Part shown: piece after piece, positions 4,843 to 30,475 of the stretch
Layout of the letters: each line of letters begins with the position of its first letter
How positions within the stretch are numbered: position 1 is the first letter of the stretch
Assembly: GCA_963772375.1 (NCBI GenBank)
Contig: CAVYXG010000009.1
Span: 31,312 to 95,311 of the forward strand
Source of the DNA: an uncultured Actinomycetes bacterium
GTDB taxonomy: Bacteria > Actinomycetota > UBA4738 > JACQTL01
Length of the DNA stretch: 64,000 nt
Reading direction: 5' to 3'
Translations under genes and position numbers: made by a program
The notes under the pieces: model-generated
What the model saw: the letters and a program-made list of their open reading frames with translations, nothing else
The model's database searches: none
What the model was told of the DNA's origin: nothing

Positions 4843-5232
4843 TTGAGAATGCTTTCACAAGCTGCTCCAGAGACCTTCTACCAGCAGTACGCCACCCTCA
4901 TCGGCGTGATCGTCGCCGGGATCGGACTGGTGGCGGTCGCATTGATCACGGCCCGCGCGCTGTCGCCCCGCCGTCCGGTCCCCGCCAAGCTCACCACCTA
5001 CGAGTGCGGGATGGACCCCGTGGGGGAGGGCTGGAGCCAGACCCAGATCCGCTACTACATCTACGCGTTCCTGTTCGTCATCTTCGACGTCGAGAGCGTG
5101 TTCCTCTTCCCGTGGGCCACCGTGTTCGAGTCGCTCGGGTACCAGGCGGTCGTGGAGATGGCGATCTTCATCGGGATCCTCGGCGCCGGGCTGCTGTACG
5201 CGTGGCGGAAGGGAGTCCTGCGATGGGTGTGA
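4843..5232 (+). CDS. nuoA: NADH-quinone oxidoreductase subunit A
   Basis: [26 protein letters not shown]; start either TTG 4843 or ATG 4849. Confidence 0.95.
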
Positions 5233-5729
5233 TCGACAACATCAAGGTGCCCCAGCCGATGAAGTTCATCCTCAACTGGGGCCGGCGGTACTCCCTGTGG
5301 ATCATGAACTTCGGCCTGGCGTGCTGCGCCATCGAATTCATCGCGGCGTCCACGTCGAAGCACGACTTCATCCGGTTCGGGGTGATCCCGTTCGCGCACG
5401 GCCCCCGGCAGGCCGACCTGCTGCTCGTGGCCGGAACGGTGACCGACAAGATGGCCCCGGCCATCAAGCGCGTCTACGACCAGATGCCGGACCCCAAGTA
5501 CGTCATCTCGTTCGGCTCGTGCTCGAACTGCGGCGGCCCGTACTGGGACAGCTACTCGGTGACCAAGGGGGTGGACCAGTTCGTCCCGGTGGACGTGTAC
5601 GTCCCGGGGTGTCCCCCGCGTCCGGAGGCCCTGCTGCACGGCATCATGAAGCTGCAGGAGAAGATCGCGCAGGAAGACATCGGGGAGAAGTGGACTGGTG
5701 GCATCTCGCCGGCCCCTCACGGTTCCTGA
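5223..5729 (+). CDS. nuoB: NADH-quinone oxidoreductase subunit B
   Basis: [32 protein letters not shown]. Confidence 0.96.
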
Positions 5730-6222
5730 CGTCGGGAACGCCCTGCGGGCGCAGTTCGGCCAGGACCTGGCCGACGTCGCCGACCGCGACGGCCACGCCG
5801 TCGTGACGATCACGGAACCGAGGTACCGCGAGCTGATCACCGTGCTGCGGGACGACCCGGAGTTCGACTGCGACTACTTCGACTTCCTCACGGCGGTCGA
5901 CTTCCCCGACCAGCAGCAGTTCGAGGTGGTCGTCCACCTGTACTCGAACGCCCGCAACCACCACGTGCGGGTGAAGCTTCGCATCCCCCGCGACCAGCCG
6001 GTGGCGCCCAGCATCCACGACCTGTATGCGGGCGCGAACTGGTTCGAACGCGAGGCCTGGGAGCTGTTCGGCATCGTGTTCGACGGCCATCCGCACCTCG
6101 TGAAGCTGGTGCTGCCGGAGCCGTTCGAGGGCCACCCCCTCCGCAAGGACTTCGAGCTCATGAGCCGCGTCGCCAAGCCATGGCCTGGCGCGGCCGAGGG
6201 CGAGGAGGGCGAGGAGGAGTGA
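5698..6222 (+). CDS. nuoC: NADH-quinone oxidoreductase subunit C
   Basis: [28 protein letters not shown]. Confidence 0.93.
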
Positions 6223-7310
6223 CGGCCGCCGCCGCCATGCCCGCCCTGGTCGCCCACGGCCTCGGGCTGCCCGTCGCGCAGACGAACCCGTCGTTCGTGA
6301 ACGACCTGTTCAACGGGTTCTGGTGGATCGTCATCGTGAAGGCGCTGCTGGTGCTGATCGTGTTCCTGTCCGCGCCGATGGTGGTCGGCTACATGGAGCA
6401 CAAGGTGCTGGCGCACATGCAGCACCGCCTGGGGCCCATGTACGCGGGGGGGTTCCACGGGTGGGCGCAGCTCATCGCGGACGGGGTGAAGTTCGTCCAG
6501 AAGGAGGACGTCATCCCCAACGCCGCCGACCGATGGGTGTTCGGCCTCGCGCCGGCCGTCGCGATGATCCCGTACATCCTGCTGTTCGCCGTGATCCCGT
6601 TCGACGGCGGGATCTACGCCGAGAACCTCGACGTCGGGATCTTCTTCGTGGTCGCCGTGACCTCGATCTCGGTGATCGGGATCCTGATGGCCGGGTGGTC
6701 GAGCGCCAACAAGTTCTCGCTGATCGGCGCCCTGCGGGCCGCCGCGCAGCTGATCGCGTACGAGCTGCCGCTGATCCTCGCCGCCGTCGCCGTGGTCATG
6801 CAGGCGAGCGGCCTGGTGCCCGGCTCCGACGGCCACAGCAGCCTGTCGCTGCTGTTCATCACCGAGGCCCAGCAGAAGCTGTGGTTCGTGTTCCCGCAGA
6901 TCGTCGGGTTCGTCATCTTCATGGTCGCAGCCGTGGCGGAGCTCACCCGCCCGCCGTTCGACATGCCGATCGCCGACTCCGAGATCATCTTCGGCGCGTA
7001 CACCGAGTACTCGGGGCTGCGGTTCGCGTTCTTCCTGCTCGCCGAGTACGGCGGCATCGTGGCGCTGTCGGCGATCGCGTCGGTGCTGTTTCTCGGGGGG
7101 TTCCAGCCCCTTCCCTTCCTGTCGTTCATCCCGGGGTGGATGTGGATGGCGGGGAAGATCATGGGGCTCGCGTTCTTCATCATCTGGCTGCGTGCGACGT
7201 ACCCGCGCCTGCGGGAGGACCAGCTCCAGCGGTTCTCGTGGGTCGGGCTGATCCCGCTGGCCCTGTTGAACCTCATGGTCACGGCGTTCCTGAAGGTGGC
7301 GGTGGGGTAG
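6219..7310 (+). CDS. nuoH: NADH-quinone oxidoreductase subunit H
   Basis: QHRLGP, ADGVKFVQKED, AELTRPPFD, TEYSG, YPRLREDQL; start either 6219 or 6237. Confidence 0.95.
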   Translation: MTAAAAMPALVAHGLGLPVAQTNPSFVNDLFNGFWWIVIVKALLVLIVFLSAPMVVGYMEHKVLAHMQHRLGPMYAGGFHGWAQLIADGVKFVQKEDVIPNAADRWVFGLAPAVAMIPYILLFAVIPFDGGIYAENLDVGIFFVVAVTSISVIGILMAGWSSANKFSLIGALRAAAQLIAYELPLILAAVAVVMQASGLVPGSDGHSSLSLLFITEAQQKLWFVFPQIVGFVIFMVAAVAELTRPPFDMPIADSEIIFGAYTEYSGLRFAFFLLAEYGGIVALSAIASVLFLGGFQPLPFLSFIPGWMWMAGKIMGLAFFIIWLRATYPRLREDQLQRFSWVGLIPLALLNLMVTAFLKVAVG

Positions 7311-8282
7311 ATGGCGCAGAAGATCCGGATCCGGCGCCAGGAGGGCTCGCGGACCGCGTCCGACGCCGACCTGCCCAAGCCGATCAGGGGGACCGGCCTG
7401 ATCAAGGGCCTGATGGTCACCCTGAAGCACCTGCTGTCGCCGGCGATCACGCAGCAGTACCCGGAGGAGAAGCCCGATCTCCCGGCGCGGACGCGGGGCG
7501 TCATCGCGCTGAAGCAGGAGAACTGCACCGTCTGCTACAAGTGCTCGCGCGAGTGTCCGGACTGGTGCATCTACATCGACGCCCACAAGGAGACCCACGA
7601 GCCGGCCTCGGGCGGCCGCGCGCGGTCGGTGAAGGTGCTCGACCGGTTCGCCATCGACTACGCCCTGTGCATGTACTGCGGGATCTGCGTGGAGGCGTGT
7701 CCGTTCGACGCCCTGTTCTGGTCGCCGGAGTTCGAGTACGCCGAGTACGACATCCACGAGCTGATCCACGAGAAGGAACGGCTCGAGGAATGGACGTACC
7801 ACGTGAAGCCGCCGCCGGAGCTCGAGGTCGGGGCCGAACCGCCGGCCGATGCGCCGCCCGCCCCCGCACCGGCGCCGACCGCTCCGGCCGCCGCCGCCGC
7901 CCCGCCCGCCGCGCCCGTGCTCCAGGCGCAGCCGCCACTCGTCGGGCAGGAGGCCCCTCCCCAGCCCACCGGGGCCGCACCCCCCGCGCAGCCGGCCGCC
8001 CCGCCCGCCGCCACCGGCGCCGCTCCGCCCACGACGCCGGCCGGTCCCGCGGAGGGCTCGCCGGAGGAGACCACCCCGAACGTCGCCGCCGCCGGCGAGC
8101 AGACCGCCGCGCCCGTGGCCGCGGGCCCCCGGGGCGAACGCGTCGAGGTCGAGCTCGACCAGCCGACGTTCGAACGCGTCCTCGAAGAGGAGCTGGCCAA
8201 GGGGACCCAGCGCCGGGTCGCCGAGGGCAAGGCCCGCCGGGCCGCCATGCTCGAGGCCCGCAGGAAGGCGGCCGAGGGATGA
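7311..8282 (+). CDS. nuoI: NADH-quinone oxidoreductase subunit I with long C-terminal extension
   Basis: TQQYPEEK; two [4Fe-4S] motifs [12 protein letters not shown] and [12 protein letters not shown]. Confidence 0.93.
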
Positions 8283-8848
8283 TCGCGTCCTACTCGGCGC
8301 AGGACTGGGCGTTCACCGCGGTCGCGGTCGTCGGGATCATTGCGGCGCTCCGCATGGTGACCACGAAGAACGTCGTCCACGGGGCCCTGTACCTGGTGAT
8401 CGCGCTGTCGATGATCGGCGCCGGCTATCTGGTCATGGCGGCGGAGTTCGTCGCGTGGGTCCAGATCATCATCTACGTGGGCGCGATCGTGGTGCTGCTG
8501 CTGTTCGCGCTGATGCTGACCAAGGCGCCCATCGGCCGGGAGGCGCTCGACAACCAGCAGCGGGGGATCAGCTCGCTGGTGGCGCTCGCCGTGCTCGCCG
8601 GGCTGGTGTTCCTGGTGCTCGACGCGTTCCGGAACCAGACGATCCCGCTGGCCGGCCCCGCGCCGCAGACGACGACCGGACAGATCGGCGAGTCGCTGTT
8701 CCGGGCGTTCGTCGCGCCGTTCGAGATCGTGTCGATCCTGCTGCTCGCCGCCCTGATCGGCGCCATCGCCATCGCCCGCAAGGATGACCCGGTCCACTCG
8801 GAGCAACCCCCCGTCAGGACCGCCGAGACCGCCCGGAGGGAGGGCTAG
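8279..8848 (+). CDS. nuoJ: NADH-quinone oxidoreductase subunit J
   Basis: [35 protein letters not shown]; ATGA overlap. Confidence 0.94.
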
Positions 8849-9178
8849 ATGCACCTGTGGCTGCCGCTCGTGTTCTCCGCCGCGCTGTTCGCGATCGGGG
8901 TGTACGGCGTGCTGGCCCGCCGCAACGCGGTGCTGATCCTGATGTCGATCGAGCTGATGCTGAACGCCGTCAACGTCAACCTCGTGGCGTTCTCGAAGGC
9001 CATCAGGAGCGGGCTGGCCACGGCGGGCGCCACCGCCGCGACCACCGGGCAGATCTTCGCGCTGTTCGTCATCACGGTGGCGGCCGCGGAGATCGGCATC
9101 GGGCTCGCGATCGTCATCCTCATCTACCGCAACCGCGAGTCCATCAACGTCGACGAGGTCAACCTCCTGAAATGGTGA
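8849..9178 (+). CDS. nuoK: NADH-quinone oxidoreductase subunit K
   Basis: [27 protein letters not shown]. Confidence 0.95.
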
Positions 9179-12633: not shown

Positions 12634-14087
12634 ACATCGACTACCACGCCATCGCCCCCGAACTGATCATGACCGGGACCATCCTCGTGGTCCTGCTGTT
12701 CGACGCCTTCCTGTCGGAGCGGCGCAAGCAGGTGACGATGGTCGTCGGGCTGCTCGGGTCCGTGGCGGCCCTGATCGCGACGCTCACCCTGATCGGAGAG
12801 CACCGCGTGACGTTCGGCGGGATGTTCGTCGTCGACCCGTTCTCGGTGCTGTTCGACGTGTTCTTCCTGGTCTCGGCCATCGTGGTGCTGGGGCTCTCGC
12901 TGCGCTACATGCAGGACGGGCGGTACTACCAGGGCGAGTACTACGTGCTGCTGCTGTCGGCGTTCCTGGGCTGCCTGACCATGCCCTCGTCGCGCGACCT
13001 GATCATGCTGTTCATCTCGCTGGAGCTGGTCTCGGCCCCGGGGTTCCTGATCGCGGCCTTCCGCAAGACCGACCCCAAGTCGAACGAAGCCGGCCTCAAG
13101 TACTTCCTGTTCGGCGTGCTGTCATCGGCCCTGATGCTGTACGGGATGAGCCTGATCTTTGGGGTGACCGGTACCACCCGGCTCGACGGGATCGCCACCG
13201 CGCTGGCCGGGAAGGCCGGCGACCTGAACGTCACGCTCGCGGCAATCGTGCTGGTGGTGGCGGGGTTCGCGTTCAAGGTGTCGAGCGTGCCGTTCCACTT
13301 CTGGGCGCCGGACACGTACGAGGGCGCGCCGATGCCGGTGGCGGCGTTCCTGTCGGTGCCGTCGAAGGCGGCCGGGTTCGCCGGCCTGCTCCAGCTGATG
13401 TTCATCGCGTTCCTGCCGAAGGCCGACTTCTGGGCTCCGCTGTTCGCGGTGCTGTCGATCCTCACGATGACGCTGGGGAACCTCGTCGCCCTCCGCCAGC
13501 GGCAGATGGTCCGGCTGCTCGCGTACTCGAGCATCGCCCAGGCCGGGTACATGCTGCTGCCGTTCGCGCTGGCCACGGTGGGCAACGCCCAGGTCAACCA
13601 CGCGGCGTTCTCGTCCGCCGTGCTGTACATCCTCGTGTACGGCGTGATGTCGCTGGGGGCGTTCGCGGTCGTGATCGGCCTGGCCCGCGAGGCGCCGGGG
13701 GCCCTGATCGAGGACTACTCGGGGATGATCCACCGCGCACCGGTGCTGGCGGTCGCCATGACCGCGTTCCTCGTGTCGCTGGGCGGCGTCCCGCCGACGG
13801 CGGGCTTCTGGGCGAAGTTCTCGATCTTCTCGGCGGCGATCTCCCGGGGCGGGCTGGGGCCGTGGCTCGCCGCCATCATGGTGATCAACTCGGTGATCTC
13901 GCTGGGGTACTACCTGATGGTGGCCCGCACCATGGTCCTCGCGCCGGCCGTCGACGAACGCCGGGCCCGCGTGCCCGGCCTGGTCGGCGCGCTCGCGCTC
14001 CTCGGGGTGATCGTGGTCATCGCGGTCGGCATCTACCCCGACCTGTTCGCCCGGTTCCCCCAGGGCGCCACGCTGTTCGGCCCGTAG
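12630..14087 (+). CDS. nuoN: NADH-quinone oxidoreductase subunit N (second copy)
   Basis: SNEAGLKYF, FKVSSVPFHFWAPDTYEGAP, RLLAYSSIAQAGY; GTGA overlap. Confidence 0.95.
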   Translation: MNIDYHAIAPELIMTGTILVVLLFDAFLSERRKQVTMVVGLLGSVAALIATLTLIGEHRVTFGGMFVVDPFSVLFDVFFLVSAIVVLGLSLRYMQDGRYYQGEYYVLLLSAFLGCLTMPSSRDLIMLFISLELVSAPGFLIAAFRKTDPKSNEAGLKYFLFGVLSSALMLYGMSLIFGVTGTTRLDGIATALAGKAGDLNVTLAAIVLVVAGFAFKVSSVPFHFWAPDTYEGAPMPVAAFLSVPSKAAGFAGLLQLMFIAFLPKADFWAPLFAVLSILTMTLGNLVALRQRQMVRLLAYSSIAQAGYMLLPFALATVGNAQVNHAAFSSAVLYILVYGVMSLGAFAVVIGLAREAPGALIEDYSGMIHRAPVLAVAMTAFLVSLGGVPPTAGFWAKFSIFSAAISRGGLGPWLAAIMVINSVISLGYYLMVARTMVLAPAVDERRARVPGLVGALALLGVIVVIAVGIYPDLFARFPQGATLFGP

Positions 14088-14169
14088 GTCCGATCTCTCA
14101 GGAGATTCTTCGGCGCCGTCTGCGCATCCCCCGGACCGGGAACGATCTCCGGATGGGATACTGGGCGGA

Positions 14170-14268
14170 GCGAAGGGGAGTAGCCCAGGCCGGTCGGCCG
14201 TCAACACGGAGTCTCGCGGAACGAGGCCCCCGGCCCCGGCGGGAGAACACCCCCGGCAAGACCTTCGC
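14170..14268 (+). ncRNA. yybP-ykoY (Mn2+-sensing) riboswitch aptamer
   Basis: Hallmark segments AAGGGGAGTAGC...CGTCAACAC...GGCAAGACCTT; closing helix GCGAAGG (14170-76) / CCTTCGC (14262-68); lies in the 5' leader of htpX. Confidence 0.85.
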
Positions 14269-14291
14269 CGGTACTTGACGGCGGAGGTCTT
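14258..14291 (+). terminator. Riboswitch expression-platform hairpin (terminator-like)
   Basis: 13-bp stem AAGACCTTCGCCG / CGGCGGAGGTCTT with an 8-nt loop; competes with the aptamer 3' strand; weak U-tract; just upstream of the AAGGAGG RBS. Confidence 0.6.
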
Positions 14292-14312
14292 CTTCGCAAG
14301 GAGGACGGAACG

Positions 14313-15185
14313 ATGACGGGGATCAACCGGTTCAAGACCTGGATCCTCATCGCTACCCTGGGTGGCCTGTTCGTGGGGATCGGGGCCCTGCTCGGCGGGC
14401 GGCAGCTCGCGACGATCATGCTGGGGGTCGCGATCCTGTTCAACTTCGCCATGTACTGGTTCTCCGACCGCATCGCCATCGCGGCCAGCCGGTCGAAGCC
14501 CGTCACCGAGCGCGAGATGCCCGAGCTGTACTCGATCGTCCGCGAGCTGACCCAGGCCCGGAACATGCCGATGCCGGCGATCTACGTGAGCGAGATGCCC
14601 CAGCCCAACGCGTTCGCCACCGGCCGCAACCCGTCGCACGCCGCGGTGTCGGTCACGCGGGGCCTGCTGCAGATCGTCGACCACCGCGAGCTCCGCGCCG
14701 TGCTGGCGCACGAGATCTCCCACGTGGCCAACCGCGACATCGCGATCTCCTCGATCGCGGCGGCGATCGCCACCTCGATCACCTACCTGGCGCAGATGGC
14801 GTTCTGGTTCGGGGCGTTCGGGGGCGACGACCGCGAGGGCGGCGGCAGCCCGATCGTCCTGCTGCTCACGGTGCTGCTCGCGCCGATCGCCGCGATGATC
14901 ATCCAGCTCGCGGTGTCCCGGTCCCGCGAGTTCCAGGCCGACGAGTCGGGCGCCGAGCTGATCCACGATCCCGAAGCCCTGGCCAGCGCGCTGCTGAAGA
15001 TCGACGCGTCCGCCAAGCAGACGCCGCCGGCGACGCTCAGCCCGTCGCAGGCGCACCTGTTCATTATGAACCCATTCAGCGGGCGCAACCGCGGCTCGAT
15101 GATGGCCGGGCTGTTCTCGACCCATCCGCCGACGGAGGACCGGGTCGCCCGGCTCCGGGCGATGGCTCAGGGCCAGCCCCACTAG
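14313..15185 (+). CDS. htpX: Zinc metalloprotease HtpX (M48)
   Basis: PNAFATGRNP, HEISH, SRSREFQAD, FSTHPP. Confidence 0.95.
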   Translation: MTGINRFKTWILIATLGGLFVGIGALLGGRQLATIMLGVAILFNFAMYWFSDRIAIAASRSKPVTEREMPELYSIVRELTQARNMPMPAIYVSEMPQPNAFATGRNPSHAAVSVTRGLLQIVDHRELRAVLAHEISHVANRDIAISSIAAAIATSITYLAQMAFWFGAFGGDDREGGGSPIVLLLTVLLAPIAAMIIQLAVSRSREFQADESGAELIHDPEALASALLKIDASAKQTPPATLSPSQAHLFIMNPFSGRNRGSMMAGLFSTHPPTEDRVARLRAMAQGQPH

Positions 15186-15198
15186 CGCCGGCTCACCA

Positions 15199-16041
15199 GT
15201 GGAACACCCGCCTCCCCTCGACCTCGGGTCAGGGGAGGCGGTCGTCTCCGCCATCGTGGAGCACGACGCGTTCCTGGTGACGACGCTCGTCCGGCTGGCG
15301 GGCGTCACGCTGTACGAGGACGCGTTCGCCACGTGGTACCTGTCCGGTGTTCCGGAGGCGATGTTCAACGGGGTGATCGCCACCCGGATGACCGAAGCCG
15401 ACGCCGACCGCCGGATCGACGAGCTGGTGGGCCGGTTCAAGGAGGAGGACGTGCCGGCCATGTGGTGGGCGAGCCCGCTGTCCACGCCCGCCGACCTCGC
15501 ATCGCGGCTGGCGGTGCGCGGCCTGCACCGGACCACCATGCCGGGCATGTCGCTCGACCTCGACGCGTTCACGCCTGTGGCCGTGCCGGGCGGGCTTCGC
15601 ATCGAGGTCGTGCGGGACGAGGGCGGCATCGACGCCTGGATGGAGGCGAGCAGCGAGGCGTTCGGAATCGAGCCCGAGCAGCTTCCGCGGTACCGCCAGA
15701 CGCCGGAGGCGGTCCTCGCCGGGGACGTGCCGGGGTGGTGCCTCACCGGGTGGTGGGAGGAACGGCCGGTCGCCACCGCGATGGTGTGCGTCGGCACCGG
15801 CGTGGCCGGCCTGTCGAACATCGCGACGATCCCGTCGCATCGCCGTCGCGGCCTGGGGGCGGCGGTCACGTCGCGCGGGCTGGAGCTGGCCCGTGACGCC
15901 GGCTACCGGACGTCGGTGCTCACGTCGACCGACTCGGGCCGCCCGCTGTACGAGGCGCTCGGGTTCGAGACGCGCTGCACGGTGGACGTGTTCGAGCTCG
16001 CGCCGGCCGGACCGCCCGGCGCTACGGCCGGAAGTTCGTGA
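15199..16041 (+). CDS. GNAT N-acetyltransferase
   Basis: IATIPSHRRRGLGAAV acetyl-CoA motif; LYEALGF. Confidence 0.85.
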   Translation: MEHPPPLDLGSGEAVVSAIVEHDAFLVTTLVRLAGVTLYEDAFATWYLSGVPEAMFNGVIATRMTEADADRRIDELVGRFKEEDVPAMWWASPLSTPADLASRLAVRGLHRTTMPGMSLDLDAFTPVAVPGGLRIEVVRDEGGIDAWMEASSEAFGIEPEQLPRYRQTPEAVLAGDVPGWCLTGWWEERPVATAMVCVGTGVAGLSNIATIPSHRRRGLGAAVTSRGLELARDAGYRTSVLTSTDSGRPLYEALGFETRCTVDVFELAPAGPPGATAGSS

Positions 16042-23549: not shown

Positions 23550-23637
23550 CGACCCCCAGGCCGGCCACATCGCTTGCCGCCACGATCGATGACCGAATAG
23601 CGTGGGTGCGGTTCGAGCGGGAGCGGGAGCGAGGGTC

Positions 23638-25551
23638 ATGGCACGAGCACACTGGCTGCGGTTGCGTTCGTCGTTGGTGGTGGGTGCCGTGGCCCTCGTG
23701 GCCGCCGCGGCGATGATGGTGCCGGTGGGCGCGTCGCCGACGGCCGCCCTCCGCGCGGGCTGTTCGTCGGGGTCGCACTCGCTGTCGCCGCCCGGCTCCC
23801 GCGTCTACCCGGAGGTCGGCAACGGCGGCTACCGCAGCGTCCACACCCACGTGTTCATGGTGTACGACGCCCCGACCAACAGGTTCCTGCATGGGAACCA
23901 CGTCGTCCTCACCGACGTGGCCACCAAGTGCCTCACGGACTTCAGCCTCGACTTCGAACGGTCCTCCGCCGACCACAAGGCCGGCCCGCACCTCACGGTC
24001 GGGTCCGTGAAGGTGAACGGCCACCCGGCGGCGTTCGAGTTCGTGCAGCCGACCTACCCGGGAGACCCCAACGGCGACGACGACCCGGACCCGCTCGCCC
24101 ACGAGGTGTCGAACGTCAACCCCGTCGGCCCCGGCAACCCGAACCCGCCGGCCTGCTCGCCCCAGGTCGCGGGGGACTCGCAGAACGGCCAGCAGTGTCC
24201 GGCGAACAAGCTGGTGATCACGCCGTCGTCGCCGATCCCGAAGGGGTCGACGTTCGTGGTGTCCGTGGCCTACACGGGCAAGCCGGGCGTCCACCACGAC
24301 GGCGACGGCACCACCGAGGGCTGGTTCCGCTCGAACGAACCCCCGGGCGACGGCGGGTTCGTCACCACCGAGCCGGTCGGCACCGAGGATTGGATGCCGC
24401 TCAACGACTTCCCGACGGCCAAGCCCACGTACGACTTCCACGACACCGTGAACCTCGGCCGGACGGCGATCGCCAACGGCGAGCTCAAGACCTCCAACCC
24501 GCCGCCCCCCAACCCGCCGGACGCGAACTTCCCGGGGGGCTCGGTGACGTGGATCTGGCACAGCCCCGAGCCCATCGCCAGCTACCTCGTGGAGAACAGC
24601 GTCGGCGCGTACGGCCTCCGCGAGCTGGTGCGAAACGGCATCACGTTCTACGAGGCGCAGGCGCGCGCGATCCGCCCGGGCCGCAAGGCCCGGAACCGCG
24701 CGATCATGAACCAGCAGCCGGACATCACGCGGTTCGAGGCGAAGTTCAACGGGCCGTTCCCGCTCACGACGGACGGCGTGGTCGTCGGCCTGCCCACCGC
24801 GGGGTTCGAGGAGGAGATGCAGGGCAAGATCACGTTCCAGGGCGGCCGGGTCGACGTCGGGACCCTCTACCACGAGAACTTCCATCAGTGGTTCGGGGAC
24901 AACGTGTCCGAGGACCAGTTCCGCGACACGTTCTGGAAGGAGGGGTGGGCCACCGTCGGGGAGTTCCTGCTCGAAGCCCGCATCGCGCAGCGGAACGCCG
25001 GCGGCCCCGGGACGCCCGCCGGCGACCGGGCGTTCGACCGGTCCCTCCGGCGCGGATTCGCGTCGGTGTACGCGGCCGGTGGGAAGTTCTGGACGATCGC
25101 TCCGTCCGACCCGACCGTGGAGTCGTTGTTCGGCGGGGCGAACACCTACGTCCGTCCCGCGGCCGCCTACCTCGCGCTCCGGCAGATCCTCGGGGCCCGG
25201 GCGGCGCACCCCCGGCACGACCTGTGGATCAAGGCCATCCACGACATCCAGCGCCGGTACCGTGGCGGCTCCATCACCGAGGCGCAGCTCGAGGCAGTGT
25301 TCCACGACCGGCTCCCCAGCCAGAGCGCGGGATGCCAGGCCAAGCTGACCCGGTTCTTCCGGCAGTGGTTCGACACGGTGTATCCGGCGGGCGGTGGGGC
25401 GGCGAACGAGCCCCGGATCACCGGTCCCGGGCTCCCCGGTCCGGACCAGTTCTACGAGGCCGGAACCGCCTGCGCGCCGCCGCCCGGGTTCCCCGCGGTC
25501 CCGGCCCCCGCCGCGCCCGGGGCCCGGATACCGGACGTGGCCACCCGCTGA
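23638..25551 (+). CDS. Secreted M1-family zinc aminopeptidase
   Basis: Signal peptide; YPEVGNGGY; HENFH-x18-E zinc motif. Confidence 0.85.
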   Translation: MARAHWLRLRSSLVVGAVALVAAAAMMVPVGASPTAALRAGCSSGSHSLSPPGSRVYPEVGNGGYRSVHTHVFMVYDAPTNRFLHGNHVVLTDVATKCLTDFSLDFERSSADHKAGPHLTVGSVKVNGHPAAFEFVQPTYPGDPNGDDDPDPLAHEVSNVNPVGPGNPNPPACSPQVAGDSQNGQQCPANKLVITPSSPIPKGSTFVVSVAYTGKPGVHHDGDGTTEGWFRSNEPPGDGGFVTTEPVGTEDWMPLNDFPTAKPTYDFHDTVNLGRTAIANGELKTSNPPPPNPPDANFPGGSVTWIWHSPEPIASYLVENSVGAYGLRELVRNGITFYEAQARAIRPGRKARNRAIMNQQPDITRFEAKFNGPFPLTTDGVVVGLPTAGFEEEMQGKITFQGGRVDVGTLYHENFHQWFGDNVSEDQFRDTFWKEGWATVGEFLLEARIAQRNAGGPGTPAGDRAFDRSLRRGFASVYAAGGKFWTIAPSDPTVESLFGGANTYVRPAAAYLALRQILGARAAHPRHDLWIKAIHDIQRRYRGGSITEAQLEAVFHDRLPSQSAGCQAKLTRFFRQWFDTVYPAGGGAANEPRITGPGLPGPDQFYEAGTACAPPPGFPAVPAPAAPGARIPDVATR

Positions 25552-25629
25552 CGGAATTTTTGGGAACATCGCTCGAGCACCGGCGGCCACGCCGCGACCG
25601 CCGACGACCAGGGGGAGCTCCGAGCTTCG

Positions 25630-26493
25630 ATGTATCAGTGGTGGGTCCTGCTGCACCTCACGGGGGTGTTCGTATTCCTCCTGTCCCACGGGGTCTCCGT
25701 GGGCGTGCTGTTCCGCCTCCGGTCCGAGCGTCAGCCGGCCAAGGTGGCCACGCTCCTCGAGCTGTCGGGGACCTCGGTCAAGGGGTTCTACGTGGGCCTC
25801 GTCGTGCTGGTGGTGGGGGGGTTCGCCGCGGTCGCCTCCGGCCACCTGTGGGGGCAGGCCTGGATCTGGGTCTCGGTCGGCGTGCTGGTGCTGGCCTCCG
25901 TCGCGATGACCTCGATGGCCACGCCGTACTACCGGCGGGTGGGGTTCGTCGCCCGGGCCATGGAGGGGGGAACCGAGGCCGTCACGCCCGAGCAGTTCGA
26001 CGAGGTGCTGAAGGACAGCCGGTCGGGCTCCGTCGCCGGGATCGGCTTCGTGGCCCTCGCGCTGATCCTGTACATGATGGTGATGAAGCCCACGTTCGGG
26101 CTGGGGGGCTCGAGCGCGTCGCCGCCTCCGCCGTCGGGGTGCGCGCCGGCGACGACCATCCACGTCCAGGCGTCTGGGCTGAAGTTCGACACCGATTGCC
26201 TCGCCGCGCCCGCGAACACCGCGTTCAAGATCGTGTTCGACAACAAGGACCCGGATCAGCACAACGTCGCGATCTACAACGGCTCGACCAACCTGTTCCG
26301 CGGGGCCATCTTCGGCGGGCCGAACACCGAGACCTACTCGGTGCTGGCGCTCCCGGCGGGCACCTACAAGTTCCAATGTGACGTGCACACGTTCATGAAC
26401 GGAACCTTCAAGGTGGAGGCGGGCGGCGCAGCGACGGGCGGGCCCTCCTCCGGCGCGTCCACCTCCACGACATCGGGCACATCGGGGAGCTGA
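25630..26493 (+). CDS. 4-TM membrane protein (DUF2269-like) fused to a C-terminal cupredoxin domain
   Basis: N-terminal LLHL...SHG TM segments ending MVMKP; HNVAIY and YKFQCDVHTFMNG type-1 copper ligand set (H, C, H, M). Confidence 0.8.
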   Translation: MYQWWVLLHLTGVFVFLLSHGVSVGVLFRLRSERQPAKVATLLELSGTSVKGFYVGLVVLVVGGFAAVASGHLWGQAWIWVSVGVLVLASVAMTSMATPYYRRVGFVARAMEGGTEAVTPEQFDEVLKDSRSGSVAGIGFVALALILYMMVMKPTFGLGGSSASPPPPSGCAPATTIHVQASGLKFDTDCLAAPANTAFKIVFDNKDPDQHNVAIYNGSTNLFRGAIFGGPNTETYSVLALPAGTYKFQCDVHTFMNGTFKVEAGGAATGGPSSGASTSTTSGTSGS

Positions 26494-26496
26494 CAC

Positions 26497-27537
26497 ATGG
26501 GGTATCGCAGGATCCTGGCCGGGACGGACGGCTCGAAGACCGCGGCGGTTGCCGTGTCGGTGGCGGCGCGGCTGGCTGCGCGAACCGGCGCCGACCTCCA
26601 TCTGGTGATGGGTTGGCAGCCGCCGGAGCTGGACGCCGACCGGGCCGAGGCCATCCTGGCCAAGGCTCGTGAGGCGGTGTCGGACGGGAAGCTGACCGTG
26701 ACCGGCGAGCACCACATCGGCGACGGTGCGGCCGTGATCCTCGACGTGGCCAAGCGCCACCGGGCCGACCTGGTCGTGATGGGGAACAAGGGCATGGGCA
26801 GGGCCCGGCGGATCGGGCTCGGCGCGATCCCCGACAAGGTCGCCCACCAGGCCGGGTGCGACGTGCTCATCGTTCGCACCACCCACCACAATCAGCCGAT
26901 CACCGGCCGGGCCGAGGGCCTCTACGCGCACATGGTCATCGGGACCGACGGCTCCCCGACGGCGACCGAGGCCGCGTCGAAGGCGTTCGAGCTGGCCATG
27001 ATGGTCCGCTGCGAGGTGTCGGCCGTCTACGTGGGCGACCCGATCGTCGGAGCGATCACGCTCGAGGAGGCCGCCAAGCGCCGCATCGGCCGCACCAAGG
27101 TCCACCCGGTGGTCGTCGAGCGGGGCGAGCCGGCCAAGGTGCTGGTCAAGGTCGCGAAGGACGCAGGGGCCGACCTCGTGGTCGTGGGGAACAGGGGCAT
27201 GACCGGCGCCCGGCGCGTGCTCCTGACGAGCGTTCCGAACGTCGTCAGCCACACCGCCCCCGCCGACGTGCTGATCGTGCGGACGGTGGGGCGTTCCGTG
27301 GAGGACCTCCGGCCCGGCTCCGGCGGCGTCGTCCTGGCCGGCGGCCGTCCGGTCGCGGCGTACCTCGACGAGGGGGGCGTCCTGCACGCGTCCTCGCCGC
27401 GGTGCACGCACATGGGCTGCACCGTCGACTGGAACGAGGCCGACCGGACCTGGGACTGCCCCTGTCACGGCTCCCGCTACGACCTCGACGGCCACGTGAT
27501 CCACGGTCCGGCCACGAAGGACCTCGAACCGGCGTGA
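26497..27537 (+). CDS. Tandem universal stress protein domains fused to a Rieske [2Fe-2S] domain
   Basis: Two GTDGS...DLVV(M/V)GN(K/R)GM USP units; CTHMGC and WDCPCHGSRY Rieske boxes. Confidence 0.88.
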   Translation: MGYRRILAGTDGSKTAAVAVSVAARLAARTGADLHLVMGWQPPELDADRAEAILAKAREAVSDGKLTVTGEHHIGDGAAVILDVAKRHRADLVVMGNKGMGRARRIGLGAIPDKVAHQAGCDVLIVRTTHHNQPITGRAEGLYAHMVIGTDGSPTATEAASKAFELAMMVRCEVSAVYVGDPIVGAITLEEAAKRRIGRTKVHPVVVERGEPAKVLVKVAKDAGADLVVVGNRGMTGARRVLLTSVPNVVSHTAPADVLIVRTVGRSVEDLRPGSGGVVLAGGRPVAAYLDEGGVLHASSPRCTHMGCTVDWNEADRTWDCPCHGSRYDLDGHVIHGPATKDLEPA

Positions 27538-28751
27538 CCGGCCAACCCCGGCGCATCGTCGTCGTCGGGGCCGGCGTCGCCGGGGGCAGCGCGGCCCTCG
27601 CCGTCCGCGACGCCGGGTTCGACGGCGATCTCACGTTGATCGGCGCCGAGCCCCATCTTCCGTACGAACGGCCCCCGCTGTCGAAGGCGTTCCTCCGCGG
27701 CGAGCTGCGCGACGAACGCCTCGACCTGCGCCCGGCAGCGGCCTGGGGGGAACGCGGCATCGACGTCCGCACCGGAGCCCGGGTGGCGGCGATCGACCCG
27801 GCCGCCGGCGAGGCGACCCTCGAGGACGGCGCGGTGGTCGGGTTCGACCGGGCGGTCGTCGCCACGGGATCGCGGAACCGCCGCCTCGAGGCGCCGGGCA
27901 CGGACCTCGAGGGGGTGTTCGACCTGCGGACGGTGGACGACTGCCGGCGGCTGCGGGCCGCGGCGCAGCCGGGGCGTCACGCGGTGATCGTGGGGATGGG
28001 GTTCGTCGGGTCGGAGGTGGCCGCGTCGCTCCGCTCGCTCGGCGTGGAGGTCACCGCCCTGTTCCCCGGCGACGCGCCGCTCGACCGGGTGCTCGGCCCG
28101 GAGGTCGGGCGGGCGGTGGCCGGGGTGCACGCCGAACACGGCGTCCGGTTGCTGCCCCGGACCCGGTTCGCGGCCTTCGAGGGCGCCTCCGGTTCCGTGG
28201 CCGCAGCCGTGGCGGGGGACGGCCGGCGCTTGGGGTGCGACCTCGCGATCGTCGGCGTGGGCGCCCGGCCGAACGTCGAGCTCGTTCGCGCGGCGGGGCT
28301 GGAGGTCACCGACGGCGTCGTGGTCGACGACCGGGGCCAAACGAGTGCGCCGAACGTGCTCGCGGCCGGCGACATGGCGTCGTTCCCGCTGGGCGGGACG
28401 GGCCCGCACGTCCGCATCGAGCACTTCCAGCACGCGGTTCGCCACGGCCGGGCGGTGGGGAAGGCCGCGGCGGGGGAGGGCGAGCCGTTCACCGACGTGC
28501 CGTGGTTCTGGTCGGACCAGTACGACCAGCACCTCCAGTACGCCGGTTGGCACCGGACGTGGGACGCGTTCGAGGTGCGTGGCTCGGTGGACGCCCGCAG
28601 CTTCCTGGGGTTCTTCTGCGAGGCCGGCGTGGTGCGTTCGGTGGTGTCGATGAACCGCAACCAGGAGCTCCGCCGGGCGATGCCGGCGATCGGACGCGAG
28701 GTGTCGCCCGAGGTGCTGCGAGACGAATCCGTGGACCTCCGGGACATCTGA
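27534..28751 (+). CDS. FAD-dependent ferredoxin reductase (GR-type, oxygenase-reductase-like)
   Basis: GAGVAG, PYERPPLSK, GMGFVGSE, AAGD, VPWFWSDQYD; GTGA overlap. Confidence 0.92.
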   Translation: MTGQPRRIVVVGAGVAGGSAALAVRDAGFDGDLTLIGAEPHLPYERPPLSKAFLRGELRDERLDLRPAAAWGERGIDVRTGARVAAIDPAAGEATLEDGAVVGFDRAVVATGSRNRRLEAPGTDLEGVFDLRTVDDCRRLRAAAQPGRHAVIVGMGFVGSEVAASLRSLGVEVTALFPGDAPLDRVLGPEVGRAVAGVHAEHGVRLLPRTRFAAFEGASGSVAAAVAGDGRRLGCDLAIVGVGARPNVELVRAAGLEVTDGVVVDDRGQTSAPNVLAAGDMASFPLGGTGPHVRIEHFQHAVRHGRAVGKAAAGEGEPFTDVPWFWSDQYDQHLQYAGWHRTWDAFEVRGSVDARSFLGFFCEAGVVRSVVSMNRNQELRRAMPAIGREVSPEVLRDESVDLRDI

Positions 28752-28885
28752 TCCGGACCGCGGGCGACACCCGAACGGCCGATGACGGGTGACGGAGGAA
28801 TCACCCTTGTGCCCCCCGCCGGCGGGAGTCGATACTCGCCTTGGTTCGATGCGGTCTCGACCCCCCCTTCGAAAGGAGGCCGCCC

Positions 28886-30475
28886 ATGCGTCCGCCACCG
28901 CGTGTGGTGATCCCGATCCTCGTCGTCCTGGCCTCCGCCGCCGTCACCGCGGCGGCCGCCCCCTCCCACGGTCCGGGCAGGGGCGTGCGGCACGAGAGCA
29001 AGCTCGGCCGGGCGTCGATCGCCCACCGGATGAAGGGCGGAACCTTCTTCCGCCACTCCAAGGGCAACATCCAGGGCCACGACCAGGAGGGCGTTGCCAA
29101 GATCCCGACCGGGAAGTTCGTCAAGCGGATCCACACCGGGCAGTCGAGGGTCGTGCCGCTGCAACAGCCCGGGTCTCCGGCGCCCGCGGCGGAGACCCGG
29201 GCGCGAACGCTCACGTTCTTCCGAAACACCCCCCGGATCGTGACGGGCCTCGGAACGCCGAACGACCCGAACGTCGCGGCGGCGGGCCAGAAGGTGGTCG
29301 TGGTCAACAACGAGAAGATCTCGCTGTCGGTCGACGGCGGGCTCACGTTCCACTCCTTCGGCGTCGGATCCCTGTACGCGGACAGCCCCGACGGGGGGGT
29401 CTGCTGCGACCAGGTGATCCGCTACGCGCCGTCGATCAACCGGTTCATCTGGATCGACCAGTACTGGAACGCCGTCGGGCATCCCAACAATCGCGACCGG
29501 CTTGCGGTGTTCCCGCCGTCGGCCGTCACGACGGGCGGCCTGACGTCGTGGACGTACTGGGATATCACCGCCGCCATGCTTCCCGGGACCCATAAGTTCC
29601 TCGACTACCCCGACCTCGCCGTCGGCACCAGCTACGCGTACCTCTCACAGGACGCGGGCGACGCCTGCTGCAGCGTCAACCAGTCCTTCATCGCTCGGAT
29701 CGGCCTCGACAACCTCCAGAGCGGCCTGAACCTCGCGGCCGGGCCGCACGCGTGGCGCTATCTCGATCAGGTGCTCCTGGGCGGCCAGGTGGCACAGAAC
29801 ACGCTCGGTCGGGCGTTCTGGGCCCGGAACACCGACACCAGTCACATCCAGGTCAACTCGTGGGCCGAGTCCTCGACCTCGTACCTCAGCCCGGCGGCCA
29901 CGATCACGATCGGGACGTGGCCGAACTCCGACTACGTCAGCAAGACGCCCGACGGGACGCCGTGGATCGCGACCTACGGCGGGGCCGTGATCGGCGAGGC
30001 CCGCGGCGGGCCGAAGAACGGCAGCCTGTGGTTCGCATGGACGGCCGGGCGCGGATCCGGGAAGCTCAGCTGGCTCGCGCAACCCCACATCGAGCTGGTC
30101 GAGATCAGCGCCTCGGGCCTCTCGCTCGTCAGCCAGCGGGCCATCTGGAATTCGAACTACGCGTTCGCCTATCCCGCGCTCATGACGAACGCCGCGGGCC
30201 AGCTCGGGATCTCGATGGCCTGGGGAGGCGGGACGAACTACGAGAACTTCGCGGTGGGCAACCTGACCAACTCGCCGTTCCTCGTGTACAGCGCGACCAA
30301 CAGCACGGCGAACTGCGGGTGTGGCAGGTGGGGCGACTACTTCGGGATCGGGACGGCCGGTGAGGTGGACCGGCCGAACGAGTTCGTGGCGGCCGGGTAC
30401 GGGTTCAGCCCACCGCCCGCCGGCGGCCCGGCGAGCTACGACGCACACTTCGTCGGGTTCCAGATCGACCCGTAG
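28886..30475 (+). CDS. Secreted beta-rich hypothetical protein
   Basis: GGAGG RBS; signal peptide; CCDQ, DYPDL, RWGDY motifs. Confidence 0.75.
   Translation: MRPPPRVVIPILVVLASAAVTAAAAPSHGPGRGVRHESKLGRASIAHRMKGGTFFRHSKGNIQGHDQEGVAKIPTGKFVKRIHTGQSRVVPLQQPGSPAPAAETRARTLTFFRNTPRIVTGLGTPNDPNVAAAGQKVVVVNNEKISLSVDGGLTFHSFGVGSLYADSPDGGVCCDQVIRYAPSINRFIWIDQYWNAVGHPNNRDRLAVFPPSAVTTGGLTSWTYWDITAAMLPGTHKFLDYPDLAVGTSYAYLSQDAGDACCSVNQSFIARIGLDNLQSGLNLAAGPHAWRYLDQVLLGGQVAQNTLGRAFWARNTDTSHIQVNSWAESSTSYLSPAATITIGTWPNSDYVSKTPDGTPWIATYGGAVIGEARGGPKNGSLWFAWTAGRGSGKLSWLAQPHIELVEISASGLSLVSQRAIWNSNYAFAYPALMTNAAGQLGISMAWGGGTNYENFAVGNLTNSPFLVYSATNSTANCGCGRWGDYFGIGTAGEVDRPNEFVAAGYGFSPPPAGGPASYDAHFVGFQIDP

Follow-up and report, generated by a model that had tools for sequence, protein, structure and literature searches.

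A 64,000-nucleotide stretch of an uncultured Actinomycetes genome (contig CAVYXG010000009.1 of assembly GCA_963772375.1; hereafter the window) carries three co-oriented genes that form a real and strongly conserved redox unit, apparently undescribed so far. Gene 1 encodes a DUF2269 membrane protein with a cupredoxin domain, gene 2 a protein of two universal stress protein (USP) domains followed by a Rieske [2Fe-2S] domain, and gene 3 a reductase dependent on flavin adenine dinucleotide (FAD). With moderate confidence, we propose that the conserved module is a nucleotide-gated conduit that would carry electrons from NAD(P)H to the outside of the cell. The proposal builds on domain identities, gene adjacency, gene fusions, residue conservation and predicted topology; from these we infer each electron-transfer step, the cofactors of DUF2269, the direction of flow, the acceptor and the gating. 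Although the parts of the module are familiar, its architecture and its membrane component are not. Open reading frames (ORFs) and direct reading of the sequence bear out the layout given in the first-pass annotation of this DNA: genes 1 and 2 are separated by 3 nt (TGA-CAC-ATG), and genes 2 and 3 overlap by 4 nt (GTGA).

The grouping of the module genes is far beyond chance. Scanning one genome per species with gene 2 yielded 318 relatives, of which the best 80 loci, themselves kin, were kept and searched by tblastn for genes 1 and 3. A DUF2269 gene adjoins the USP-USP-Rieske gene in 76 of these 80 loci, over gene 2 identities of 36-92%. L008, L065 and L066, three of the four loci without this neighbour, are cut short no more than 68 bp upstream, and the fourth, L080, is a non-orthologue that aligns over the USP part alone and lacks the Rieske domain. 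The pairing reaches relatives of 36-42% identity and two Chloroflexota records, in which the DUF2269 gene lies downstream, often convergently. All-against-all clustering of the neighbours revealed no additional gene common to more than 20 of 81 loci. At locus L062, a contig of a metagenome-assembled genome (MAG), the DUF2269 gene is 3.9 kb from the best match, yet directly upstream of a second USP-USP-Rieske copy; of the two genes there, one stands alone (8103-9122) and the other, behind DUF2269, is apparently fused to a reductase (13458-15758).

The other two components vary. The cupredoxin is fused to DUF2269 in 50 of the 80 loci, with split matches in L058 and a partial one in L078, and is absent in 25. 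A reductase is fused to the USP-USP-Rieske protein in 27 loci, as stop-free ORFs of 762-788 aa, and is encoded separately downstream in 8 and upstream in 11. Among homologues of 607-2000 aa, all 120 listed, out of 165 proteins with E ≤ 0.001, combine Usp, Rieske and Pyr_redox_2 and contain no other partner domain. Out-of-frame pieces were seen for the cupredoxin part of L058 (7208-7992) and the reductase part of L078 (8001-10321), which may be assembly errors or decaying copies. A quick IQ-TREE phylogeny of 77 USP-USP-Rieske sequences (L065, L066, L079 and L080 left out; midpoint rooting) needs at least seven changes of reductase state and at least three of cupredoxin state, and the DUF2269/USP-USP-Rieske pairing is present in every deep clade. 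Since the deepest clades have neither reductase nor cupredoxin, the conserved core is, judged from these sequences, the DUF2269/USP-USP-Rieske pair, the other two parts being clade-specific additions. Of the trio that had been singled out beforehand as one module, the genes do co-occur elsewhere and the pair holds as a unit, whereas a cupredoxin, seen in about 52 of the 80 loci, and a nearby reductase, seen in 46, belong to particular clades.

Gene 2 is also widespread. At E ≤ 1e-40 it is matched in 251 of 294 class genomes; among high-quality genomes the figure is 96 of 109, and among genera 65 of 78. The count takes in 21 unpublished genomes, and the class genomes are kin. Near-universality in a class represented solely by metagenomes makes it likely that the protein is central to redox balance or stress survival in these abundant soil bacteria. 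Genomes of the class are small (2-3 Mb), and the nearest public records are MAGs of uncultured 'Actinomycetota bacterium'. The genome that holds the window is 4.75 Mb long and 95% complete, and carries a single copy of gene 2.

Pfam agrees with the first-pass annotation that gene 2 joins a Rieske [2Fe-2S] domain (E = 1.3e-13) to two USP domains. Across 44 aligned sequences, the cluster ligands C303, H305, C321 and H324 and the disulfide cysteines C308 and C323 are invariant. The best matches of the domain are cytochrome b6f PetC proteins (NCBIfam E = 4e-17; PDB 2zt9_D, E = 5.7e-14), followed in the PDB by Rieske proteins of bc1 and arsenite oxidase. NCBIfam scores, in bits against cutoff, were 62/250 for PetC, 29/275 for actinobacterial QcrA and 19.5/150 for HcaC. 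By these matches, the domain classes as b6f/bc1-type, with both disulfide cysteines, and as distinct from the oxygenase ferredoxin type. The N-terminus of the protein is a USP domain without hydrophobic segment, membrane anchor or export signal, and the Rieske protein is therefore expected to be soluble and cytoplasmic.

USP proteins of the nucleotide-binding class have a conserved Asp in strand 1 and the motif G-x2-G-x9-G-(S/T). Both USP domains of gene 2 keep TDGS and the Gly-rich motif: T10, D11, G12, G96, G99, T150, D151, G231, N232 and G234 are invariant in the 44 relatives, and G109, G237 and S245 are kept in at least 90% of them. The motif of the window copy ends in G-A in the first domain and in T-S in the second. 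The closest solved USP structures are MSMEG_3811 (5ahw), Rv1636 (1tq8), TTHA0895 (1wjg) and MJ0577, the first two mycobacterial. On this sequence pattern, the USP pair probably binds an adenine nucleotide, ATP or cyclic AMP (cAMP), and gates the flow of electrons. In a clade of 17-20 loci (L032-L058), annotated on L042 (2157-12997), the module is embedded in a cAMP-signalling array that comprises a LuxR response regulator, a response-regulator adenylate cyclase, a HisKA_3 kinase, a 255-aa protein without family, the module itself, a 139-aa cNMP-binding protein and a USP-ABC1 (UbiB-like) kinase. This gene context hints at cAMP as the ligand of the USP domains. No signalling genes of this kind occur in the window itself.

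Gene 3 consists of Pyr_redox_2 (E = 8e-63) and Reductase_C (E = 3e-18) domains. Its closest solved structures are 3fg2, 3lxd, PdR (1q1r), TodA (3ef6) and BphA4 (1d7y), with E from 4e-74 to 5e-50, and it reaches no NCBIfam equivalog cutoff (HcaD, 277 against 450). We classify it from sequence as an ordinary member of the BphA4/PdR-type FAD reductase family. The first-pass annotation had described a reductase of the kind that feeds Rieske ferredoxins; the family assignment stands, whereas the partner here appears to be a b6f/bc1-type Rieske domain rather than the usual low-potential ferredoxin. A further reductase, 50% identical to gene 3, is encoded on another contig of the same genome (C4, 218764-219963) and could serve that genome's P450s or ring-hydroxylase.

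The product of gene 1 had been described as a four-transmembrane protein with a type-1 copper site, and Pfam, AlphaFold2 and the alignment confirm both the four helices and the cupredoxin ligands. The AlphaFold2 model (51-row alignment; mean predicted local distance difference test score, pLDDT, 89.4) comprises four long helices, predicted at pLDDT 92, and a further short one at 120-127; a linker modelled with low confidence leads to a beta-sandwich at 176-263. Cupredoxin_1 matches residues 172-260 (E = 6e-9), and the top Foldseek matches of the sandwich are auracyanin (6kol, E = 4e-9), amicyanin and plastocyanin, at probability 1.00. All 36 aligned relatives that have the domain share H211, C250 and H253, and 35 of them share M256. 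Sequence and fold together thus predict a type-1 copper protein.

DUF2269 (PF10027) spans residues 7-154 of gene 1, with scores of 26.4 bits for the whole protein, 28.8 for the domain alone and 28.3 in the genome search, against a gathering cutoff of 28; these borderline values mark it as a divergent subfamily by sequence. H9, H20, G21, S23, S46, G64, W78, G114, G139, M150 and P154 are invariant, and M93 nearly so, in alignments of 70 and 51 relatives. A profile search of 1.84 billion cluster representatives at E ≤ 0.001 recovered 1304 relatives, mostly of about 160 aa. Conservation was counted in 140 of the best 150 representatives, 10 of fewer than 145 aa having been dropped: H20 is kept in 139, H9, G21, G64 and W78 in 137 each, G139 in 130, M93 in 127 and M150 in 126. 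Lysine and arginine are concentrated in loops 1-2 and 3-4 (means of 4.8 and 6.2, against 0.3 each for the N-terminus and loop 2-3), which indicates an N-out/C-out protein with an extracytoplasmic cupredoxin. The same charge topology places the conserved loops RLRxERDP and GGSxAVS on the cytoplasmic side. Counted along the predicted helices, H9, G64 and M150 would lie at similar depth in an outer-leaflet layer, and H20/G21, M93 and G139 in an inner-leaflet layer. Each layer would bring together one His, one Met and one Gly of different helices, as a buried redox cofactor would require, and in this model the two layers most likely bind heme b or copper.

The outer domain is exchangeable. Ten longer DUF2269 representatives include two with Cupredoxin_1 and three with a CXXCH cytochrome c domain (P0166, P0256 and P0210), which follows a Ser/Thr-rich linker at the same C-terminal position; of the rest, one has DUF2269 and an unassigned tail and four have no family. 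A metagenome scan with P0210 gave 18 loci, all matching its cytochrome c part alone. P0208 is apparently translated in the wrong frame. Judged from these architectures, the occurrence of two unrelated classes of small carrier at the same end of the bundle is the strongest indirect sign that the bundle exchanges electrons. With the cupredoxin predicted on the outer side, the copper site is out of reach of the Rieske domain, and any electron would have to pass through the DUF2269 bundle itself.

A second DUF2269 locus is present on another contig of the same genome (C5, 1125917-1129948; L093:4918-8949). Its DUF2269 gene (L093:7219-7661) belongs to the same His-x10-HisGly subfamily, with 37% identity to gene 1, directly follows an Rrf2-family regulator (6701-7144) and is divergent from a NirK-like copper nitrite reductase on the minus strand (4918-6564; TIGR02376, E = 1.8e-49), whose C-terminal cupredoxin is 52% identical to that of gene 1. 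A 411-aa multi-pass membrane protein of no family follows (L093:7717-8949). The paralogue was not found in 150 other genomes of the class, in an insensitive search that also missed the window's own copy.

Structure prediction of the USP-USP-Rieske protein with DUF2269 (residues 1-160) gave a complex score of 0.55, against 0.07 for the best control; the runs share at least 83% of contacts, with partner pLDDT of at least 82. In calibration, 58 of 80 solved complexes and 2 of 110 mismatched pairs passed the mark; only 7 of the 80 solved complexes scored 0.60 or less, as did both of the mismatches that passed. Since gene adjacency makes the pairing likely beforehand, we count the score as weak to modest support for predicted docking of the USP-USP-Rieske protein on DUF2269.

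In the mechanism that we propose, the reductase would oxidise NAD(P)H on its FAD and pass electrons to the b6f-type [2Fe-2S] cluster that the USP-USP-Rieske protein carries C-terminally, steps suggested by the Rieske-reductase gene fusions. The USP-USP-Rieske protein would then dock on the conserved cytoplasmic loops of the DUF2269 bundle, a transfer to which adjacency and the weak complex score both point. The electron would cross the membrane through the two His/Met/Gly layers, inner site then outer site, and the bundle would hand it to its own extracytoplasmic type-1 copper domain (in relatives, the recipient would be a separate carrier or a cytochrome c domain). This step is consistent with the topology, the conserved residues and the exchange of cupredoxin for cytochrome c. 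The copper domain may finally reduce an acceptor outside, and an adenine nucleotide (ATP or cAMP) on the USP pair would act as the gate. The first-pass annotation had drawn a chain from NAD(P)H through FAD and Rieske to the membrane protein and its copper centre. Its beginning is sustained by the reductase fusions, which occur in 27 loci and throughout the 120 longer homologues listed, and its Rieske-membrane protein link by the 76 adjacencies and the weak complex prediction; direct contact between Rieske and copper falls away with the cupredoxin outside the membrane, leaving DUF2269 to carry the electron. More generally, and only tentatively, DUF2269 might represent an unrecognised class of transmembrane electron conduit, a minimal four-helix bundle with one His/Met-ligated redox centre per leaflet, charged on the cytoplasmic side by a nucleotide-gated Rieske protein and discharged on the outer side by a fused cupredoxin or cytochrome c; we would sooner doubt this wider claim than accept it.

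Several observations weigh against a conduit from NAD(P)H to the outside. In 23 of the 80 loci, the reductase is absent although at least 4 kb is available on both sides, and 11 more loci are unassessable. Of five genomes searched whose module has no nearby reductase, three encode one of 46-47% identity at another place; the fourth has nothing closer than a relative of 32%, and the fifth has none at E ≤ 1e-30. Under midpoint rooting, the deepest clades have neither cupredoxin nor a reductase within 8 kb, which implies that the ancestral pair functioned without the two parts from which the chain can be read. Being kin, the related loci are not independent samples. A b6f-type and presumably high-potential Rieske domain is an unusual partner for the reductase family of gene 3. 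The cofactors of DUF2269 are putative, deduced from residue conservation and from positions counted along the predicted helices. The DUF2269 fold matches only generic four-helix bundles, for which Z ≤ 12 is common, and the complex score of 0.55 falls in a band where most predictions are wrong, except for pairings that were already likely.

The fold searches behind this point gave no nameable fold family, since all scores lie within the helical-bundle background. Foldseek with the DUF2269 domain alone found nothing in the PDB at E ≤ 0.001 (best, cytochrome b6 2e74_A, E = 0.75). VIA-align gave a best Z of 12.0 for a de novo bundle, then 11.0 for bd oxidase 5ir6_B and 9.8 for cytochrome b6 7r0w. 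The DUF2269 profile matched nothing meaningful among PDB sequences (best, CD81, E = 0.04), and Pfam returned no similarity of gene 1 to CopD, HemJ, DUF989 or cytochrome b at E ≤ 10. In a language-model look-alike search, the nearest clusters were CopD, DUF4149, DUF2214 and HemJ, at 0.77-0.80 against a lead threshold of 0.9.

The same module could be imagined without any electron crossing the membrane: the USP-USP-Rieske protein would read nucleotide and redox state, its cluster being poised by the reductase, and would switch DUF2269 as a transporter or channel. USP domains are usually regulatory, both here keep nucleotide-binding motifs, and mycobacterial 5ahw and 1tq8 are among their closest solved relatives; signalling genes flank the module in the L042 clade of 17-20 loci, and the deep clades dispense with reductase and cupredoxin. 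Such a sensor does not account for the two dedicated carrier classes, cupredoxin and cytochrome c, fused to the outer end of DUF2269, nor for an NAD(P)H reductase as the only domain fused at the Rieske end in all 120 listed proteins. Outer and inner fusions together argue for electron throughput rather than signalling alone, and we regard a purely regulatory role as unlikely. The identity of the outer domain likewise bears on copper handling, in which a CopD-like DUF2269 would move copper to or from its own copper domain while the Rieske protein and reductase reduce Cu(II) to Cu(I). Conserved His and Met typically serve to bind Cu(I), and CopD, DUF4149, DUF2214 and HemJ came nearest in the look-alike search, as leads only. 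The cupredoxin, however, has a full His-Cys-His-Met electron-transfer site and matches auracyanin, amicyanin and plastocyanin; relatives exchange it for cytochrome c, a domain without a role in copper trafficking; and no CopC, CopA or other copper-homeostasis gene was found among the neighbours scanned. These features make a copper-handling role distinctly improbable.

Reversing the direction, an external donor would feed the cupredoxin and electrons would run inward and uphill to NAD(P)+, as in lithotrophs, and the uphill branches of iron oxidisers do use a high-potential-type Rieske protein and a blue copper protein. Pfam reveals no energy-coupling component in the module, whether proton-translocating subunit or quinone site, and established redox potentials imply that transfer from copper or Rieske to NAD(P)+ is strongly unfavourable, so that we consider inward flow very improbable. 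An ordinary oxygenase or P450 reductase pair, with its terminal enzyme encoded elsewhere and the membrane protein an incidental neighbour, is the disfavoured explanation, to which we give next to no credence. Gene 3 is closest to PuR, ArR, PdR, TodA and BphA4, and the genome has six P450 matches and one Ring_hydroxyl_A match, all on contigs other than that of the window (C9, 118 kb). Against such a pairing stand the adjacency to DUF2269 in 76 of 80 loci, a b6f-type Rieske domain that scores 19.5 bits with HcaC against a cutoff of 150, an invariant USP fusion, and the presence of the module in most members (251 of 294) of a class whose genomes are small, at 2-3 Mb. The earlier remark that no terminal oxygenase or P450 lies nearby holds for the whole of C9: the genome profile search found no P450, Ring_hydroxyl_A or second Rieske match across its 118 kb, gene 2 being the sole one there of 11 Rieske matches in the genome, and terminal oxygenases and P450s are absent among the conserved neighbours of the 80 loci.

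If the conduit from NAD(P)H to the outside is real, DUF2269, a family of more than 1000 clusters at 50% identity, would gain a function, USP domains would be seen to control an electron-transfer protein directly, and a new compact electron route across the cytoplasmic membrane would be added to those known. An uncultured class of soil Actinomycetota would be credited with regulated export of NAD(P)H reducing power to the cell surface. The module is small, with two or three genes and soluble or four-helix parts, which makes it accessible to spectroscopy and reconstitution. The first-pass annotation did not recognise the arrangement as a described system, and we likewise found no description in the literature. 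The DUF2269 literature searched holds nothing that describes the module; titles and abstracts gave no description of a USP-Rieske fusion; and our search on transmembrane electron transfer with a cupredoxin and a four-helix bundle returned nothing relevant.

Coordinates of the module genes and their domains in the window (G+C content about 70%)
Feature	Position	Strand	Description	Evidence
Gene 1	25630-26493	+	287 aa; DUF2269 four-helix membrane protein with C-terminal type-1 cupredoxin (predicted)	ORF, Pfam, AlphaFold2
DUF2269 domain	25630-26091	+	residues 1-154; helices 2-32, 36-70, 77-112, 130-151; predicted topology N-out/C-out	
Cupredoxin domain	26143-26418	+	residues 172-263; ligands H211, C250, H253, M256	Pfam, Foldseek, alignment
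Gly/Ser/Thr-rich tail after cupredoxin	26419-26490	+		
Gene 2	26497-27537	+	346 aa; USP-USP-Rieske, predicted cytoplasmic	ORF, Pfam, NCBIfam, alignment of 44 relatives
Tandem USP domains	26503-27285	+	residues ~3-127 and 143-263	Pfam Usp, E = 1.4e-45
Rieske [2Fe-2S] domain	27298-27525	+	residues 268-343; CTHMGC 303-308, CPCHGS 321-326	Pfam
Gene 3	27534-28751	+	405 aa, GTG start; FAD-dependent ferredoxin-NAD(P)+ reductase	translation, Pyr_redox_2, Reductase_C

The immediate neighbours of the module encode an adenosine deaminase, an M1-like secreted protein, a secreted protein without family, DUF192 and a TrkA-type channel. Directly upstream, on the same strand (23602-25551), lies the gene for a secreted-looking protein of 649 aa whose sole match is a short, sub-threshold one to Peptidase_M1 (27.0 against 27.7 bits) around an HExxH-like region. 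Directly downstream, again on the plus strand (28841-30475), a protein of 544 aa is encoded that has an N-terminal signal-like hydrophobic stretch and no match in Pfam or NCBIfam. A scan of positions 25300-29100, limited to sigma-70-type sites, found no promoters or terminators, and public sequencing runs, RNA data included, had no entry for positions 25500-28900.

Among known systems, the reductase/Rieske pairs BphA4/BphA3, TodA/TodB and HcaD/HcaC, together with PdR, resemble the module in coupling a Pyr_redox_2 and Reductase_C reductase to a [2Fe-2S] partner. They differ in that the Rieske domain of the module is b6f/bc1-type with disulfide cysteines and is fused to two USP domains, that the contig carries no oxygenase or P450, and that a membrane protein is the constant partner. 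A small soluble oxygenase-type Rieske ferredoxin was rejected as an identity for gene 2, on the HcaC score (19.5 against 150), the b6f, bc1 and arsenite-oxidase matches and the invariant C308 and C323. PetC and QcrA share with gene 2 the motifs CTHxGC and CPCHGS and, likewise, a four-helix membrane partner, whereas gene 2 is predicted to be cytoplasmic, has no anchor or export signal and is paired with DUF2269 rather than cytochrome b. A b6f/bc1 Rieske subunit was also rejected, with scores far under the cutoffs, no cytochrome b neighbour and no anchor. The tandem and nucleotide-binding USP proteins MJ0577, TTHA0895, Rv1636 and MSMEG_3811 have the same Usp domains with TDGS and Gly-rich nucleotide motifs; in gene 2 the USP pair is covalently joined to a redox domain.

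Auracyanin of the Chloroflexi, the best structural match of the gene 1 cupredoxin, is likewise attached to the membrane at its outer face. Its tether is a lipid or a single helix, whereas the cupredoxin of gene 1 is fused to a conserved four-helix bundle. The NOX/ferric reductase domain, STEAP and MsrQ with Fre all lead electrons from NAD(P)H through flavin and the centres of a helical bundle to an outside acceptor, which is the same logic as that proposed for the module. The module differs from them by an extra Rieske step and by its USP domains, and we found no sequence relationship or clear fold relationship to them. Animal AIFM3/AIFL combines a Rieske domain with a pyridine-nucleotide-disulfide oxidoreductase domain and is likewise of unclear function (PMC6518782). 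It resembles the fused relatives of the module, in which a Rieske domain precedes an AIF/ferredoxin-reductase-type flavoprotein in one chain, and differs in being eukaryotic and in having neither USP domains nor a DUF2269 partner.

The membrane urate oxidase PuuD is the closest functional analogue of the module as proposed. PuuD has a DUF989 membrane core, conserved cytosolic loops and a C-terminal periplasmic cytochrome c; its authors suggest that electrons move from its cytosolic side to the carrier outside, and they note a distant similarity (E = 0.15) between the hidden Markov models of DUF989 and DUF2269 (PMC4562309). The two systems appear to share an N-out/C-out helical core, conserved cytosolic loops and a C-terminal electron-carrier domain outside the membrane. 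They differ in that PuuD is built on DUF989, which has no match in gene 1 at E ≤ 10, and on cytochrome c, whereas the module has DUF2269 and a cupredoxin. The electron source of PuuD, in the same report, is a small-molecule substrate; that of the module would be a Rieske/reductase protein partner.

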